A DNA stretch of 32,000 nucleotides, from contig NC_013202.1 of NCBI RefSeq assembly GCF_000023965.1, forward strand, positions 2,700,001 through 2,732,000. Direction: 5' to 3'. The stretch's first letter is position 1. Each line of letters begins with the position of its first letter. The notes beneath the pieces were generated by a model that worked only from the letters and a program-made list of their open reading frames with translations, was not told the DNA's origin and did no database searches. The stretch comes from Halomicrobium mukohataei DSM 12286 (GTDB taxonomy: Archaea > Halobacteriota > Halobacteria > Halobacteriales > Haloarculaceae). Made by a program: the position numbers and the translations under genes. Below are positions 20,110 to 27,145 of this stretch, one piece after another.

Positions 20110-21102
20110 ATGAACGACAACTACCACGTCTTTTCCGACGGACGCATCGAACGCCACGACGACACGGTACGGGTCATCACCGACGACGGCGAGAAAAAAT
20201 ACCTCCCGGTCGAGAACGCCGAGGCGATCTTCCTCCACGGTCAGATCGAGTACAACACCCGCTTCGTCTCCTTTCTCAATCAGGAAGGCGTCGCCGTACA
20301 CGTCTTCGGCTGGCACGATCACTACGCCGGGTCGATCATGCCCAAGCGGGGCCAAACGTCCGGACAGACACTCGTCGACCAGGTCCGGGCCTACGACGAT
20401 CCGGCCCACCGGCTCGAACTGGCTCAGGCGTTCGTCGACGGCAGCATCCACAACATGCGTGCGAACGTCACGTACTACGACGGCCGAGGACACGACTTCG
20501 AGGACGTGCTGGCAGAGCTGACCGAAGCCCGGTCGTCACTCGACAGGATGGAGACGATCGACGAGACGATGGGCGTCGAAGCACGCGCCCGAAAGGCGTA
20601 CTACTCGACCTTCGACGAGATCCTGCCCGACGAGTTCGTCTTCGGCGGCCGCCAGTACGATCCGCCGAACAACGAAGTCAACAGCCTCATCTCTTTCGGC
20701 AATTCGCTCGTCTACGCCAACGTCGTCTCGGCCATCCGAGCGACGGCACTCGATCCCACGGTCAGCTTCCTCCACGAGCCCGGCGAGCGTCGGTACTCGC
20801 TGGCCCTGGACATCGCCGACCTGTTCAAACCGTTGCTCGCGGATCGAGTCATCTTCAGACTCGTCAACCGCGGCCAGCTGACCAGCGACGATTTCGAGGC
20901 CGAGATGAACGCCTGCCTGCTGAACGAGCACGGCCGGAAGACCTACTCGAAGGCCTACGAAGAGACGCTCGACGAGACGATCGAGCACCCGGATCTGGGA
21001 AAGAAGGTGAGCTATCAGTATCTCCTCCGAGTCGAGGTGTACAAGCTCAAAAAACATCTCCTGACCGGCGAGGAGTACGTCCCGTTCCAACGGTGGTGGT
21101 GA
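20110..21102 (+). CDS. cas1: Cas1 integrase (330 aa)
   Basis: The ATG at 20110, 2 nt after the cas4 stop, gives MNDNYHVFSDGRIERHDDTVRV. Typical Cas1 length and position. The track start at 20074 lies inside cas4. Confidence 0.95.
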   Translation: MNDNYHVFSDGRIERHDDTVRVITDDGEKKYLPVENAEAIFLHGQIEYNTRFVSFLNQEGVAVHVFGWHDHYAGSIMPKRGQTSGQTLVDQVRAYDDPAHRLELAQAFVDGSIHNMRANVTYYDGRGHDFEDVLAELTEARSSLDRMETIDETMGVEARARKAYYSTFDEILPDEFVFGGRQYDPPNNEVNSLISFGNSLVYANVVSAIRATALDPTVSFLHEPGERRYSLALDIADLFKPLLADRVIFRLVNRGQLTSDDFEAEMNACLLNEHGRKTYSKAYEETLDETIEHPDLGKKVSYQYLLRVEVYKLKKHLLTGEEYVPFQRWW

Positions 21103-21105
21103 CGC

Positions 21106-21369
21106 GTGGTCTACGTGGTCGTCGTCTACGACATGGAAGCCGACCGGACACACAAGATGCTGAAGTTCCTCCGCCGGTATCTCACCCACGTCCAGAACTC
21201 CGTCCTCGAAGGAGACGTGACCGAGGGCGATCTCGAAAAGATCCGCTCCGGCGTCGACGACCTGCTCAAACCCGGAGAGTCGACGATCATCTACCAGATC
21301 TCCTCGGAGAAGCTGGTCGACCGAAGCGTGTTCGGTGACGATCCCGCCGCAGACGACCAGTTCCTGTGA
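21106..21369 (+). CDS. cas2: Cas2 (87 aa)
   Basis: GTG start at 21106 gives (M)VYVVVVYDMEADRTHKMLKFLRRYL, the canonical Cas2 beta1-alpha1 start. It lies immediately after cas1. Confidence 0.9.
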   Translation: MVYVVVVYDMEADRTHKMLKFLRRYLTHVQNSVLEGDVTEGDLEKIRSGVDDLLKPGESTIIYQISSEKLVDRSVFGDDPAADDQFL

Positions 21370-21530
21370 ACTACCCTACCCTACTCGCACACGGCTGACA
21401 CCGTTCGCTCCTTGAGGGTAGGGCTTCCTGATTCGACGACGCGCTTTGCAGATATATGTGTATCCACAGGGAGCGCAGTCTCCACAGGCGTTGATTCGAA
21501 GTATCCCACTCCTACGTTTTCGAGGCCGCG
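21370..21530 (-). ncRNA. predicted TnpB omega/right-end RNA scaffold overlapping the tnpB 3' end (extent approximate)
   Basis: From established knowledge, TnpB guide RNAs derive from the tnpB 3' end plus RE. The sequence shows a 9-bp stem CCCTACCCT/AGGGTAGGG bracketing the stop codon. No transcript evidence is available. Confidence 0.3.
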
Positions 21531-22622
21531 AGAAAGAATGTTCCACGCTGCGTTCGCGTCCCTGTCCGCCTCGAACCCGCAGGCGGGACAGGAGTGTTCA
21601 CGGACCCACAACGGCTTCTCCGTCGAGACGCCACATGACGCGCATTTCTTGGTCGTCCCTCTCGGGTTGACCGCCACGAAGTGCGTCCCTTCGCGCTCAC
21701 ACTTGTATTCGAGCAACGAGAGGAACGTCCGCCACGCGGCGGAGGCGGTGTTGCGGCTGTTCGACGGCGACTCCATCATCCCCTTCACATTCAGGTCCTC
21801 GACCGCCACAAGGTCGTACTCCCGAGCGTAGTAGTTCGACAACTTATGCAGGAAGTCGCGGCGCTTCCGTCGGAGGTCGGCGTAATACTTCGCGACTCGC
21901 CGCCGTTGCTTCTCGTAGCTGTTCGACCCGTGTTGTTTTTGCGAGAGCTTCCGTTGCTCACGTTCCAAGCGTTCGCGTTCGTCGGTGAGGTCGAGCGACC
22001 CGACTGCTGTACCGTCGGTGTCGTGAGCGTACTTGCAAATCCCCACGTCGATACCGACGCACTTCTCGGGATTCTCAGGTGGCTCGGGAGGTTCACGATC
22101 CATTTCGACACCGAACGTGGCGAACCACTCGCCCGTCGGTTCCTTCTTGACTGTGACCTGCTTGAGCGTGGCGTCGTTGGGGATGGCGCGGTGAAGCCGA
22201 ATCGGTATGTCCGCGAGTTTCGAGAGTGACAGGACAGTCTGACCGCCCTTCTTGTCGAGCTTGAAACCAGACTGACTGTACGTGAAACTGCGGAACTCCC
22301 GTGGCGGCTTCCACTTGAGTTGGCCAACGCCGTAGCCGTTCTTCTTGAGCTTGGAGAGGCCTTTGAGGTTGTCAAACAGGCGTTCCACGACGGTTTGGAG
22401 AACCTTCGAATACACGTCGTTGAGGTCGTCCCACCACTTTTTGAGGTCGGGGAGCTCCGACCGAAGCGTGGTCATGGACGGCAGTTCACCGTGTTCATCT
22501 TGGTACTCGTTGAGGCGGTAGAGCGTGTGGTTGTACAGCTGCCTACAAATATTGCGGTGTCGGTCCAACTCCTCTCGGTGGGCGTCGGACGGCTTGAGAC
22601 GGTACTTGTAGGCGTAGTACAT
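21381..22622 (-). CDS. tnpB: TnpB (IS1341/OrfB-type RNA-guided nuclease, 413 aa)
   Basis: N-terminus MYYAYKYRLKPS. RuvC-like residues in IDVGICKY, VAVEDLNVKGM and ADRDANAAWNI. Zn finger CASCG...CPACG. Confidence 0.95.
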   Translation of the reverse strand: MYYAYKYRLKPSDAHREELDRHRNICRQLYNHTLYRLNEYQDEHGELPSMTTLRSELPDLKKWWDDLNDVYSKVLQTVVERLFDNLKGLSKLKKNGYGVGQLKWKPPREFRSFTYSQSGFKLDKKGGQTVLSLSKLADIPIRLHRAIPNDATLKQVTVKKEPTGEWFATFGVEMDREPPEPPENPEKCVGIDVGICKYAHDTDGTAVGSLDLTDERERLEREQRKLSQKQHGSNSYEKQRRRVAKYYADLRRKRRDFLHKLSNYYAREYDLVAVEDLNVKGMMESPSNSRNTASAAWRTFLSLLEYKCEREGTHFVAVNPRGTTKKCASCGVSTEKPLWVREHSCPACGFEADRDANAAWNILSRGLENVGVGYFESTPVETALPVDTHISAKRVVESGSPTLKERTVSAVCE

Positions 22623-22623
22623 T

Positions 22624-23028
22624 CTACTCGCGTTGGTCCTCGACGTACTGTTTCAACACATCCAGCGACACCTGCCCCGTCGAGATGAGGCAGTACGAGT
22701 CGTTCCAGAACGAGTCACCCCACAGTTCGGTTTTCAGTTCGTCCGCGTACTCGTTGCGGATACGGCGGGCGGTTGCGCCCTTGACCGTGTTGATGAACTT
22801 CACAAGGTCCGTGGTTGGTTTCGCTCGGAACAGGATGTGCACGTGGTCGTCCTCGCCGTCGAGGTTCGTCAGTTCGACACCGTAGTTGTCCGTGAACCCG
22901 CTGATGACCTCGTGAATGAATTGGGTTCGCTCCTCGGTTAGCACTCCGCGCCGGTATTTCGTGGTGAGTATCAGGTGGTAGTGCAGGGAAAACGTCGAGT
23001 GCGCTCCCGAGTCGAGGTCGTACTCCAT
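22624..23028 (-). CDS. tnpA: TnpA Y1 (HUH) transposase of IS200/IS605 (134 aa)
   Basis: HUH motif DDHVHILF and catalytic Tyr region WNDSYCLISTG. Typical size. Confidence 0.95.
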   Translation of the reverse strand: MEYDLDSGAHSTFSLHYHLILTTKYRRGVLTEERTQFIHEVISGFTDNYGVELTNLDGEDDHVHILFRAKPTTDLVKFINTVKGATARRIRNEYADELKTELWGDSFWNDSYCLISTGQVSLDVLKQYVEDQRE

Positions 23029-23127
23029 TAGGTTCAGTCAATATGATACTACCCTATTGCAAAAACATTGTGATTACGTGGGCCTGTGGGCTTTCTATCG
23101 AATTGTGTATGAGAACTGTGCAGCGTT

Positions 23128-23174
23128 AACGAGATGCTCGCGTCTCGTTCGCACACCAGAATCTTTGATTCTGG
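23128..23174. other. two adjacent hairpins between tnpA and the CRISPR leader (candidate IS left-end structures)
   Basis: AACGAGA-TGCTCGCG-TCTCGTT at 23128-23149. A perfect CCAGAATC-TTT-GATTCTGG at 23156-23174. Confidence 0.5.
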
Positions 23175-23175
23175 G

Positions 23176-23381
23176 GACGCTGTATCCCCTCCCTGCTCGC
23201 GCCTCCTGTTCGGTCGGCGCTCGCTGAGGAAGGGGGCTTAGCGCCTCAATTCAGCTAATACTGCCGGCAGTACAACCCCACTTCCATCGACCCCCCGGGG
23301 GTTCGGGGGCTATCGAAGGTCGACGGAAACGATGAAGTGTGAACGGCGAATAGAGGTGCATACGTGGCCTAATCGGCCATG
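23176..23381 (+). promoter_or_regulatory. CRISPR leader (approximate; left boundary set by the unknown IS end)
   Basis: This non-coding stretch lies directly 5' of repeat 1 in the transcribed orientation. It contains a TATA-like CTAATAC (about 23255-23262) and the palindromes CTGCCGGCAG and CCCCCCGGGGG. Confidence 0.5.
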
Positions 23382-25579
23382 GTTTCAGACGGACCCTTGT
23401 GGGATTGAAGCTGCGTCGTCCGGTGGCCGTCAATAAATGTCGCAAGGGGTTTCAGACGGACCCTTGTGGGATTGAAGCTCCTACGACCTCGTCGGCGTCA
23501 ACGGCTGGCCCGAGTTTCAGACGGACCCTTGTGGGATTGAAGCCACCCTACAACAGGTGAAATCTACCAGACAAAAGAGTTTCAGACGGACCCTTGTGGG
23601 ATTGAAGCTCACCCAAGCGCAAGCAACAGCTGATCGAGGACCTGGTTTCAGACGGACCCTTGTGGGATTGAAGCGCGACGGCGGCCAGTTCCGCGAGGGC
23701 GGGAAGGTCCGTTTCAGACGGACCCTTGTGGGATTGAAGCTGCGAGTGTTGCGGGGAACCGACTCGGGTAGGCCAGGTTTCAGACGGACCCTTGTGGGAT
23801 TGAAGCACGGTTTCGCTACCACCATCGCCACCAGCAACTGCCGGTTTCAGACGGACCCTTGTGGGATTGAAGCGACGAGTATGCCAACCGGCTCGTGAGC
23901 GGGCGCGTTTCAGACGGACCCTTGTGGGATTGAAGCTGGTAGGCGTCGTAGGTGTTCGTGGCGAGCGTGTCGTTTCAGACGGACCCTTGTGGGATTGAAG
24001 CACTCACTGGATTATGACCCCTACAACGAGGGCGTCAGTTTCAGACGGACCCTTGTGGGATTGAAGCGGATCTCGATCGTTGTAGTATCCATAGCTGCTA
24101 TACCGTTTCAGACGGACCCTTGTGGGATTGAAGCGAAGTAACGCAACTCCAGTGAGCGCTACTGAGAGCCCGTTTCAGACGGACCCTTGTGGGATTGAAG
24201 CCCGATCACGCCCTGCCGATACTGGTAGTTCGCGATAGTTTCAGACGGACCCTTGTGGGATTGAAGCTCGTCGGCCGGCTCGTCGGCCGACGTGGACTTG
24301 CGTTTCAGACGGACCCTTGTGGGATTGAAGCAGTAGGTCTAATGTCTCTCTGTCGTCTATCAGCCCCGGTTTCAGACGGACCCTTGTGGGATTGAAGCGC
24401 TCTCCGGTGTCACAGGTCAGGTCACGGTCTCCGCGTTTCAGACGGACCCTTGTGGGATTGAAGCACGGACAAGTCATCCACCCGCCAGTATCTCCCGGTG
24501 TTTCAGACGGACCCTTGTGGGATTGAAGCAAATACGATCCTGCGGTGACGCTACGTCCGGGGCAGCGTTTCAGACGGACCCTTGTGGGATTGAAGCCAGA
24601 TGTGGGGTCTGTGGCCACAGTCTAACATCTCTGTTTCAGACGGACCCTTGTGGGATTGAAGCCCTGATAACGGACTCTTGTAGGTCCGTTAGGTCGTGTT
24701 TCAGACGGACCCTTGTGGGATTGAAGCAAAAATGAGTGACGTAGACATTCGGCAAAATGCCGGGTTTCAGACGGACCCTTGTGGGATTGAAGCCAGCAGC
24801 GAAACGAGCCGTCCGTCCTTTTGAGACAGTTTCAGACGGACCCTTGTGGGATTGAAGCGTCTAGCCCAGTCTGGTCGGGGTGGTCGGCAGGATCGGGTTT
24901 CAGACGGACCCTTGTGGGATTGAAGCCACTCCTCATATGTCTGTTCGAGCAGCGGGACGTGGTTTCAGACGGACCCTTGTGGGATTGAAGCACCGTTGCC
25001 GCCGATCGGCAGCGAGCCGGTGATGTGTGTTTCAGACGGACCCTTGTGGGATTGAAGCTCAAAGCGAGCCTCGAACGCGACGACGAAGATATGGTTTCAG
25101 ACGGACCCTTGTGGGATTGAAGCTCCTCCTTGTACCCACGGTCTTGCCGATCCATCCCGGTTTCAGATGGACCCTTGTGGGATTGAAGCGACTGGCGTGT
25201 TGCCGTTCAGGCCGGCGTTGATCCCGGTTTCAGACGGACCCTTGTGGGATTGAAGCCTCAGCAGCAGTCAACGGCATTTTATACACCTTGTGTTTCAGAC
25301 GGACCCTTGTGGGATTGAAGCCACCCCTTCCGGGGAGACGAGGAAACCCCGGACGAGTTTCAGACGGACCCTTGTGGGATTGAAGCGTCACGCTGTCTGA
25401 CGATATGGCTGACCAGGTGCGTTTCAGACGGACCCTTGTGGGATTGAAGCCACTCCTGGGCGGCCTCATCGGCGGCCATCGTCGTTTCAGACGGACTCTT
25501 GTGGGATTGAAGCGTTGTGTGAGGTATGCGATGGACACCACCGATCACGGTTTCAGACGGACCCTTGTGGGACCCGGCA
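23382..25579 (+). CRISPR. CRISPR array: 34 repeats of 30 nt (GTTTCAGACGGACCCTTGTGGGATTGAAGC), 33 spacers of 33-38 nt
   Basis: Repeat starts are 23382, 23449, 23514, 23579, 23645, 23711, 23777, 23844, 23907, 23972, 24038, 24105, 24172, 24238, 24302, 24369, 24435, 24500, 24567, 24633, 24698, 24764, 24829, 24897, 24962, 25029, 25094, 25160, 25227, 25292, 25357, 25421, 25484 and 25550. Variants are repeat 28 (C9T), repeat 33 (C14T) and repeat 34, which matches only over its first 23 nt (25550-25572). The repeat differs by 1 nt from the remembered Haloferax volcanii I-B repeat. Confidence 0.98.
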
Positions 25580-25600
25580 CTGTCGCTGGGGACGATCGGC

Positions 25601-27145
25601 TCACTTCTTTCGGATCGTCCCGCCGCCGAGCCCCTCCCACTCGACTCGGTATCCGAGCGCCGACAGGACGGCGCTGGCGTCGTCGAGCCCGTACTCGTCG
25701 AGGACCGCCTCGGCGGCCGACAGCGACATTCCGGTCTCGATCTCGTCGTCGACCGCCGACAGCACGGCCGGCCTGACCAGCGTCCGCCCGACGCGCTCGT
25801 GGTCGGGAACGGATCGGTCCTCGACAGCGGCCTCGCTGACGCCGTGTTCCGCGGCCAGTTCGGCGAGCGTGAGCACGTCGGCGTCGGGAGTGAGTGTCTG
25901 GGGGAGCGTCGCGGCGTTTGCCGCCGTCAGTTCCGACTCGTATCGGCCCAGTGCGTCGCGAACGTCTTTGATCCGGACGGTGCCCGAGTAGGGGATGGCT
26001 CGGTGGTCGCGGGCCTCGATCTCCGCGCCGATATCGCCGGACTCGGTCCGTGAGGCCGACTGCTGGTCGCCGACCGCGAGGCTCTCGTCGACGGCGACGA
26101 GCAGTTCCACGTCGTCGATCTCGGCCAGCTGTGACAGTTTCTTCTCGACGTACTCGGGCGTCCAGAACCCCATGATCTCGAAGAACACGCGGAAGTCGGC
26201 GTACTCGTAGTCGAAGGCGAAGTCGGGGATCGCGACGCGGGAGCCGGCGGCCAGCGGTTCCGGCTCTCGGGTGAGTTCCCAGTCGAGATCCAGCGCTTCG
26301 AAGCGGGCGGCGAAGTCGGCTTCGACGCCGCTGTCGTAGCTGACATCGGTCACCGGCTCGACGTCGGGGACGGACACGTCTTCGTGGGAGAGCCGGAGCG
26401 TTCGCTCGGTGCCGCGGTCGTCGATCGTCGCCCGGAGCGTCCACTCGGCGGCCGAGGCGGCGACGGTTCGCAGGAGTCGGGCAAAGCGTGTACCGTAGCG
26501 CCGCGTTCGCTGGAAGAGCCGGTCCGGGCCGGTGACGACGACGGTCCGGCCCTCGTCGGTGGCTTCGATCTCGTACATGAGACGGAGGCGCTTGACCGCG
26601 GAGACGAGCGTCCGGGGATCGCTCGACCGGAGACGGACCTCGGTGGCGTCGAACAGGGCGGTCTGTGCCAGCGAGAGGTTGTACTGGGCGATCAGTTCGT
26701 CGGGCTCCCAGCGCGTGTCGACGCGGGTCAGGACCTGCCGGCACTCTCGGTCGGCGTAGAGGGACCGTTCGATGTCGGCGGCGTCGACGGCGAGTCCGTC
26801 GGCCGCCCGTTCGATCGCCGCGCGTCGCTCGTCCTCGGAGGCGACCCCGACCGCCTCGCCGGCCTCGAAGGCAGCGCGGCGGGCTCGCGCCGGTGGGACC
26901 GCGGTCCGGGTCTCGAAGGTGGCCTCGCGTTCGACCAGCTTCGCCAGCCCGCGGACGAGCTTGAAGTCGTCGGCCCCTCGTTCGAGGTCGGTAAGCGCTG
27001 TCTGGAGTGTCTCGCGGGCTTCGCCGACGTGGCCCTGGTAGGTGCCGATCACGCTGGCGGCCAGCGGTTCGTCGGCGTCGTCGGCGAACTGCGGGTGGTA
27101 CCCCCCGCCCGCTCGCGAGACGCGCAGCAGGTCCTTCGTGAGCAC
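25601..27145 (-). CDS. bax1: Bax1 (DUF790) endonuclease, partner of archaeal XPB (514 aa)
   Basis: GTG start gives (M)LTKDLLRVSRAGGGYHPQF, the typical DUF790 N-terminus. Nuclease-like core IPDFAF...VFFEIMGFWTPEYVEKK. It lies directly downstream of xpb. Confidence 0.85.
   Translation of the reverse strand: MLTKDLLRVSRAGGGYHPQFADDADEPLAASVIGTYQGHVGEARETLQTALTDLERGADDFKLVRGLAKLVEREATFETRTAVPPARARRAAFEAGEAVGVASEDERRAAIERAADGLAVDAADIERSLYADRECRQVLTRVDTRWEPDELIAQYNLSLAQTALFDATEVRLRSSDPRTLVSAVKRLRLMYEIEATDEGRTVVVTGPDRLFQRTRRYGTRFARLLRTVAASAAEWTLRATIDDRGTERTLRLSHEDVSVPDVEPVTDVSYDSGVEADFAARFEALDLDWELTREPEPLAAGSRVAIPDFAFDYEYADFRVFFEIMGFWTPEYVEKKLSQLAEIDDVELLVAVDESLAVGDQQSASRTESGDIGAEIEARDHRAIPYSGTVRIKDVRDALGRYESELTAANAATLPQTLTPDADVLTLAELAAEHGVSEAAVEDRSVPDHERVGRTLVRPAVLSAVDDEIETGMSLSAAEAVLDEYGLDDASAVLSALGYRVEWEGLGGGTIRKK

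Follow-up and report, generated by a model that had tools for sequence, protein, structure and literature searches.

A transposon end as the stop codon of cas2: an intact IS200/IS605 element within the final sense codon of a type I-B CRISPR gene in a haloarchaeon

The stretch of DNA discussed here, which I will call the window, comprises 32,000 nt of the archaeon Halomicrobium mukohataei DSM 12286 (RefSeq assembly GCF_000023965.1, contig NC_013202.1, positions 2,700,001 to 2,732,000 of the forward strand; coordinates below count from its first letter), and it carries a type I-B CRISPR locus that houses an insertion sequence (IS) of the IS200/IS605 family. The plus strand of the window encodes cas8b, cas7, cas5, cas3, cas4, cas1 and cas2, the full type I-B order from Pfam and the called genes of the locus being cas6-cas8b-cas7-cas5-cas3-cas4-cas1-cas2 followed by leader and array; Cas4, Cas1 and Cas2 were identified by Pfam on the open reading frames (ORFs) of the window. 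The cas2 coding sequence (21106-21369, plus strand; 87 aa; Pfam CRISPR_Cas2, E=2e-16) closes with a TGA at 21367-21369, and between it and the CRISPR array (23382-25513, plus strand) lie two minus-strand genes, tnpB (21381-22622; 413 aa), which encodes a member of the RNA-guided nuclease family with RuvC and zinc-ribbon motifs, and tnpA (22624-23028; 134 aa), which encodes a Y1 HUH transposase. The two genes are convergent with the cas operon, and the TAG stop of tnpB sits 11 nt from the cas2 TGA.

Both proteins appear to be complete. TnpA covers 120 of the 121 positions of the Pfam profile Y1_Tnp (PF01797, E=7e-40), and its nearest solved structure is ISDra2 TnpA (2XM3, E=5e-22), with which it aligns so that the HUH motif (HVH) and the C-terminal tyrosine are both kept. 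TnpB matches PF01385, PF07282 and PF12323 (OrfB_IS605, E=6e-27; TnpB zinc-ribbon/TNB domain, E=3e-23), its nearest solved structures are those of ISDra2 TnpB (8BF8/8EXA/8H1J, E=5e-33, residues 4-372), and when aligned with a designed, ISDra2-like nuclease across the range that also aligns with ISDra2 TnpB it keeps GIDVG, AVEDLN and DRDANAA (the RuvC D/E/D residues) as well as two CxxC pairs (CxxC...CxxC). The hallmark of IS200/IS605 elements is also present, namely a subterminal imperfect palindrome at either end, the two lying on the top strand, without terminal inverted repeats. A preliminary description of this DNA had already reported an intact tnpA-tnpB pair of the IS200/IS605 family, convergent with the cas operon and separated from cas2 by 11 nt between stop codons, and on these points it is borne out by full-length ORFs, Pfam families and structure alignments with their catalytic motifs, by the gene strands and by the ORF coordinates. 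The element is thus a structurally intact, ordinary IS200/IS605 (IS605 group, tnpA+tnpB) of the ISHmu6/ISHma12 group, already known in haloarchaea.

What is less ordinary is exactly where it sits, and this becomes visible through an allele that lacks it. Exact-protein look-up finds the identical 87-aa Cas2 in three contexts: the window locus (GCA_009217585.1, CP045142.1), Halomicrobium katesii (strain CECT 7257; assembly GCA_000379085.1; PMC7755889) and Halomicrobium strain pws1 (GCA_012726095.1, WOYG01; PMC9881276, PMC7755889). Strain pws1 has no IS at cas2 and reads ...GAC CAG TTC CTC TAA TACTGTCGGCAGTAC..., whereas the window reads ...GAC CAG TTC CT|GTGAAC...[IS]...TTCAG|CTAA TACTGCCGGCAGTAC...; the empty CT|CTAA has become CT[IS]CTAA, with no target duplication and with both junctions unambiguous. 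The IS therefore entered cas2 between the second and third positions of its final sense codon, and base 21366 (the third base of Leu87, CTG) together with the TGA at 21367-21369 comes from the right end of the IS. On the cas2 strand this terminus reads G TGA, which turns Leu87 from CTC into CTG (a synonymous change) and replaces the in-frame stop, and because CT+G still encodes leucine and the IS-borne TGA is in frame, the Cas2 protein is the same as the IS-free one. The original third base of Leu87 (C) and the native cas2 TAA survive as the plus-strand CTAA at 23255-23258, which is the TTAG target on the minus strand and is now 1.9 kb away from the gene that it used to end. The placement proposed earlier, between the cas2 stop and the leader, is consequently wrong, as is the view that the TGA at 21367-21369 is the gene's own stop, for this TGA lies within a GTGAAC that is invariant among copies of the IS; the cas2 C-terminus (...DDPAADDQFL), by comparison, is native, the protein of pws1 being identical. 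The anatomy of the locus is corrected accordingly: cas2 is not truncated, the leader is uncut and the visible stop is transposon DNA.

The empty site and the breaks in conservation among independent copies together define a complete element of 1,889 bp at 21366-23254, whose top strand is the minus strand of the window. A megablast survey against plasmid records returned 67 haloarchaeal records, the best 88-92% identical and annotated as ISHma12- or ISHmu6-family, and the matches cover the query from 366/367 to 2259/2260, which corresponds to window 21365/6-23258/9. When six independent plasmid copies were aligned at both ends, they turned identical on the cas2 side at GTGAACTACCC..., from window 21366, with unrelated flanks before it, and on the leader side their similarity stopped at ...TTCAGCTAA, window 23258. 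A TnpB scan of GTDB genomes added 80 further loci, all in other genera and the window's own genome not among them, and in about 60 of these a script located the ends at the same termini, with similarity lost exactly at GTGAAC... and ...TTCAG|CTAA. In these genomic copies the right end closes with ...GGGTAGTTCAC and then an unconserved flank, and these terminal bases are invariant or nearly so in 43 aligned right ends; the terminal motif itself (21366-21371, minus strand) reads ...GTTCAC on the top strand and G-TGA-AC on the cas2 strand, where it forms the new stop, and GTGAAC is found unchanged in all aligned copies. The ends given earlier (21374-23175) were thus misplaced by about 80 bp on the left and 8 bp on the right, as judged from these copies and the IS-free allele. 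A search for repeats within 21300-23400 returned chance-level repeats only and did not mark the ends. One of the surveyed copies (L096:2907-5021, GCA_023276355.1) contains a 704-aa ORF that joins a full TnpB to a sulfatase domain, probably through read-through from the IS copy into an adjoining gene fragment.

Inside these termini lie the structures expected of the family. The right end has a subterminal hairpin (21373-21424, minus strand) built from a 10-bp stem, GCCCTACCCT/AGGGTAGGGT, and an inner ACGGT/GCCGT stem; its DNA fold has z=-2.98 (0 of 200 shuffles as good), and three stem positions covary among 34 copies. The number of GGGTA units in this hairpin varies from one in H. katesii (L010:3262-3275) through two in most copies to three in L038, which suggests slippage that alters the spacing between hairpin and cleavage site. 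At the left end, a subterminal imperfect palindrome at 23186-23235 (minus strand) is conserved in all copies aligned, and the DNA of 23175-23262 on that strand folds at -19.1 kcal/mol (z=-2.51). The two small hairpins at 23124-23177 (minus strand), formerly taken for the terminus of the IS, are instead an optional internal module of about 54 nt within the left end (DNA fold z=-3.84), which ISHma12-type copies lack and other copies carry at this same position. This module, of about 54-57 nt across its occurrences, follows the pattern TCCYCAGAA..TTCTGRTGKGC..stem 2..AACG, with covarying stems and conserved linkers; it also occurs at L039:2639-2663, L011:20016-20040 and elsewhere, being placed in frame within the tnpB 3'/omega-RNA region of several copies, turned around in one copy, and found in Halomicrobium pws1 between genes at a site with no IS, and it looks like a miniature dispersed mobile element in its own right.

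The junction survey also reveals what the element selects as a target. TTAG lies directly 5' of the left end on the top strand, the usual side for IS200/IS605 targets, and since it is found at 52 of 68 left-end junctions, with T at position -5 in 40 of 68, the target-adjacent motif (TAM) deduced from these alignments is (T)TTAG; flanks beyond the right end are unconserved. The motif is rare in GC-rich DNA, with only 21 TTAG sites on both strands of the 32-kb window. Now considering that TTAG is the complement of C-TAA and that the terminus G-TGA falls in the right frame, a convergent insertion at NNC TAA leaves the encoded protein unchanged if the last codon is four-fold degenerate, and where it is not, at most the final residue changes. 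To see how often this occurs, empty sites were reconstructed for 45 insertions with TTAG and enough flank, and eight of them, including the one in the window, coincide with the C-TAA stop of an ORF that is convergent and clearly coding, with L039 as a ninth case just under the coding-frame cut-off; in these cases the IS terminus supplies an in-frame TGA. The C-TAA stop insertions seen at right-end junctions besides the window are L020, L025, L029, L039, L055, L069, L078 and L091. Pfam applied to the seven other called cases and L039 recognized six real genes with domains reaching the C-terminus, encoding aRF1, glutamate dehydrogenase, a nucleoside (PNP/UDP) phosphorylase, an HD-domain protein, an amidohydrolase and a solute-binding protein. 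Among 144 other TTAG sites (in flanks, window and neighbouring loci) only two have that geometry, the empty cas2 site being one of them (Fisher p=2e-4; with the window case removed, p=6e-4), and this ratio speaks against the idea that stop-codon insertion is a mere reflection of where TTAG sites happen to be. The simplest explanation is survivorship, in that insertions within genes are lost and those at stop codons are harmless through the G-TGA terminus. That the ends of this IS family are tuned for silent insertion at the stop codons of GC-rich haloarchaeal genomes is a thought that I put forward tentatively and with more doubt than belief; if true, these elements could colonise the few available TTAG sites, cas2 included, at little cost. 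The recurring stop-for-stop swap may explain the persistence of the family at gene ends in such genomes. Since the same stop geometry recurs at unrelated genes, the CRISPR context of the insertion is probably not special.

On the other side of the element, the CRISPR leader (23259-23381, plus strand) is complete and native. Its 123 nt are collinear, with 5 substitutions, with the 123 nt that lie between the TAA and repeat 1 in pws1, and for this reason the suggestion that the distal leader had been cut off by the insertion is refuted, all of it being retained beside the array; the accompanying statement that cas2 and leader are now separated holds, with 1.9 kb of IS between them. The leader begins, right after the native cas2 stop, with a perfect 14-nt palindrome, TACTGCCGGCAGTA, at 23259-23272, followed by a CCCCCCGGGGG palindrome, and the former may serve for termination, for processing or for binding. 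The array behind it holds 33 repeats of 30 nt and 32 spacers, with 33 matches to Rfam RF01337 (CRISPR-DR24) above the gathering score, and directly downstream, at 25601-27145 on the minus strand, lies a gene for a DUF790 protein (514 aa), which in the corresponding loci is followed by an XPB-type helicase gene, the pair being kept in all three Halomicrobium strains. A BLAST comparison of the 106 spacers of the three arrays with the IS copies and their flanks gave short chance matches only, and thus no sign of CRISPR targeting of the IS.

Furthermore, the element carries what resembles the RNA component of a TnpB system. Across 43 copies, nucleotide conservation exceeds coding need for about 180 nt up from the right end, to about 21548, and the putative omega-RNA scaffold is accordingly placed at 21366-21548 (minus strand), sharing its sequence with the 3' end of tnpB and with the right end, and has a 5' limit that is approximate. 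RNAalifold on the 34 copies without insertions predicts 36 conserved pairs in five helices, in which 99.0% of cells are paired as opposed to 36-48% when partners are slid by 1-3 columns, and compensatory double changes number 66 cells against 20.6+/-3.9 in shuffles, of which 0 of 500 reach 66. Helix 5 corresponds to the right-end hairpin and could instead serve TnpA as DNA, and helices 1-4, further inside tnpB, fit a predicted omega-RNA scaffold. Because TnpB takes as its guide the sequence abutting the right end (Meers et al., bioRxiv 10.1101/2023.03.14.532601), the predicted guide of 16-20 nt (21346-21365, minus strand) is AGGAACTGGTCGTCTG(CGGC), antisense to cas2 codons 81-87 with the stop excluded. 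The empty site of pws1, read on the element strand as TTAG+AGGAACTGGTCGTCTGCGGC, constitutes a perfect natural target of this guide, and no other TAM-adjacent near-match to it exists within the window. The homing idea of the preliminary description therefore stands in principle, as a predicted guide antisense to the cas2 3' end that matches the empty site, and fails in its coordinates, 21350-21369 with the stop codon having to be replaced by approximately 21346-21365; the right end was also considered there as possibly lying elsewhere, so that the guide would not be cas2 sequence, and the other copies put that end at 21366, leaving the guide within cas2.

Taken together, I consider it highly probable that the last codon of cas2 in this locus is occupied by a single intact IS200/IS605 element, a member of the ISHmu6/ISHma12 group, with the stop swapped and with Cas2 and leader unchanged, whose insertion by TnpA and homing by TnpB would follow the mechanism of its family. 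In that scheme, TnpA would have inserted the element as single-stranded DNA, in a 'peel-and-paste' manner, at the 4-nt target. TnpB would load the omega-RNA, whose scaffold would be the right end together with the conserved, structured 3' portion of tnpB and whose guide would be the cas2-antisense AGGAACTGGTCGTCTG. Excision by TnpA would leave the scarless donor joint CTC TAA (...TTCCTCTAATACTG...), which TnpB would then recut, and repair of the recut joint from another chromosome copy still carrying the IS would keep the element in place.

How long the element has been there can be addressed with H. katesii, which has the same insertion with the same junctions. The IS copies of the two strains are 99.68% identical, differing by 6 substitutions and a 5-nt indel, the latter being the loss in H. 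katesii of one GGGTA/TACCC unit of the right-end hairpin. The sequences around it are similarly close (cas1 99.3%, cas2 99.6% and leader 99.2% identical), whereas cas8b to cas4 and the genes beyond the array are about 2-4% divergent, so that a cas1-cas2-IS-leader tract of about 3.4 kb (L012 for the window strain, L013 for H. katesii) with 0.3-0.8% divergence stands out from its surroundings. The block from cas1 to leader differs in divergence from neighbouring genes at Fisher p=2e-14, and the IS does not differ from cas1-cas2-leader (p=0.19); given this shared low divergence, the IS travelled with the adaptation module and the leader, whether through descent or within a segment moved by recombination. 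The tract may owe its low divergence to recombination or gene conversion that took in the IS, or to an adaptation module that evolves more slowly in general. The arrays behave quite differently, with 32 spacers in the window, 53 in H. katesii and 21 in pws1; the two IS-bearing strains have a single spacer in common, and neither has any in common with pws1. The shared spacer (window spacer 23, about 24859-24896, and spacer 44 of H. katesii, L013) is identical in the two, with neighbours unshared in both, and it may have been acquired twice, independently, from one protospacer, or it may be what is left after heavy loss of spacers; its use as a firm ancestral anchor was rejected, there being no shared neighbours. 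The earlier judgement that the insertion is probably recent has the intactness of the IS in its favour; yet the insertion is common to H. katesii, whose array almost entirely differs, and for that reason it is not brand new, nor a very recent event.

These comparisons also speak to whether the locus tolerates its guest. On the premise of a single insertion event, the two arrays were renewed with the IS already present, which accords with Cas1-Cas2 acting in trans, and the fact that the arrays of the two IS-bearing strains are nearly all different argues that adaptation needs no adjacency of cas2 and leader. Since the Cas1 and Cas2 proteins act in trans, the distance that the IS puts between cas1-cas2 and the leader should not matter. 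The insertion looks close to neutral for CRISPR function and compatible with continued spacer turnover, and the locus thereby offers a natural experiment, a type I-B system with 1.9 kb between cas2 and leader in two strains.

Several observations weigh against the interpretation of a working, homing element in a tolerant locus, and it is fair to present them together. Array turnover after the insertion could stem from recombination rather than from acquisition in place; when both strands of 20500-26000 were searched with Rfam cmscan (E<=1), CRISPR-DR24 alone was matched, and neither RF02656, RF02657 nor any other omega-RNA or sense-overlapping transcript RNA (sotRNA) was; exact-protein look-ups in the collection covered place the exact TnpA and TnpB at no second position in genome CP045142.1, and with one locus only there is no sign of recent transposition here; and the loss of one GGGTA unit may cripple the copy in H. 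katesii. The last two of these lead to the alternative that survives best, one that I regard as possible although rather unlikely, in which the intact copy is an immobile passenger that no longer transposes or homes and was inherited, or recombined, together with cas1-cas2-leader. Its single place in the genome, the insertion common to H. katesii, the 5-nt deletion in the right end there and the contrast between 0.3-0.8% divergence in the tract and 2-4% in the neighbours, which fits a block moved by recombination, can all be read in this manner. However, both ORFs are full length with their catalytic motifs, the copy in the window has consensus ends and hairpins, and TnpA proteins of identical sequence are found in several genera, Haladaptatus among them, from which it follows that the IS family spread recently.

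Much harder to sustain is the proposal that the element has been co-opted as a regulator and kept for that purpose, with TnpB and its omega-RNA, or antisense read-through, controlling cas2 or the cas operon, or with the left end altering the leader promoter. The predicted guide and any read-through transcript would indeed run antisense to the 3' end of cas2, and two diverged strains retain the arrangement; however, any insertion at a convergent C-TAA stop produces the same geometry, which recurs at the genes for aRF1 and glutamate dehydrogenase, the nuclease motifs of TnpB are retained and nothing specific ties the element to CRISPR, such that I would give this proposal very little credence. 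Hardly credible at all is an IS downstream of an intact native cas2 stop with a truncated distal leader and impaired acquisition or array expression, for although cas2 does close in frame with the TGA at 21367-21369, and the IS does part cas2 from the array by 1.9 kb, the GTGAAC that includes this TGA is invariant in unrelated insertions, the IS-free allele ends in CTC TAA and continues with the same 123 nt that follow the IS here, and the IS-bearing strains have 32 and 53 spacers compared with 21 in IS-free pws1.

Returning to the intact element with its swapped stop, there are implications beyond this locus. Annotators should be warned that some stop codons in haloarchaeal genomes belong to IS ends. 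In addition, a defined TAM (TTAG), a predicted guide and a natural target in the form of the IS-free pws1 allele make this copy a test case for haloarchaeal TnpB.

It is useful to close by setting the element beside systems that are already described. Its nearest relatives are ISHmu6 and ISHma12, names taken from the RefSeq annotation of the matching plasmid copies, which share the tnpA-tnpB layout with 88-92% nucleotide identity over the whole element and have the same ends and TTAG target; the TnpA annotated as ISHmu6 family on Haladaptatus plasmids is identical to that of the window, ISHma12 copies are without the double-hairpin module of about 54 nt that the window element has in its left end, and the window copy is set apart from these by where it lies, in the last codon of cas2. 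ISDra2 of Deinococcus radiodurans provides the closest solved homologues of both TnpA (2XM3) and TnpB (8EXA/8BF8/8H1J), although residue identity to the window proteins is limited despite the E values of 5e-22 and 5e-33; as predicted for the window element, its omega-RNA extends over the 3' end of tnpB as well as the right end, the flanking DNA is its guide, and its TAM is the TnpA target, as here. The motif itself differs, TTGAT in ISDra2 and TTAG in the window element. Closer to home, the sotRNAs or omega-RNAs of IS1341-type tnpB in Halobacterium salinarum (Rfam RF02656, RF02657; PMC12558985) are, like the one predicted here, structured sense-overlapping RNAs at the 3' end of a haloarchaeal tnpB, although IS1341-type elements have a stand-alone tnpB and the window element also has tnpA. 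Finally, ISGst of Geobacillus stearothermophilus belongs to another host domain and has another TAM, so that homing in the haloarchaeal element would be by analogy, but it is the model for the function proposed here: its TAM was defined by comparison with IS-free sites, as done in this study, its excision is scarless, and its donor joint, composed of the TAM and the right-end flank, is recut by TnpB in a manner that restores the transposon (Meers et al., bioRxiv 10.1101/2023.03.14.532601).

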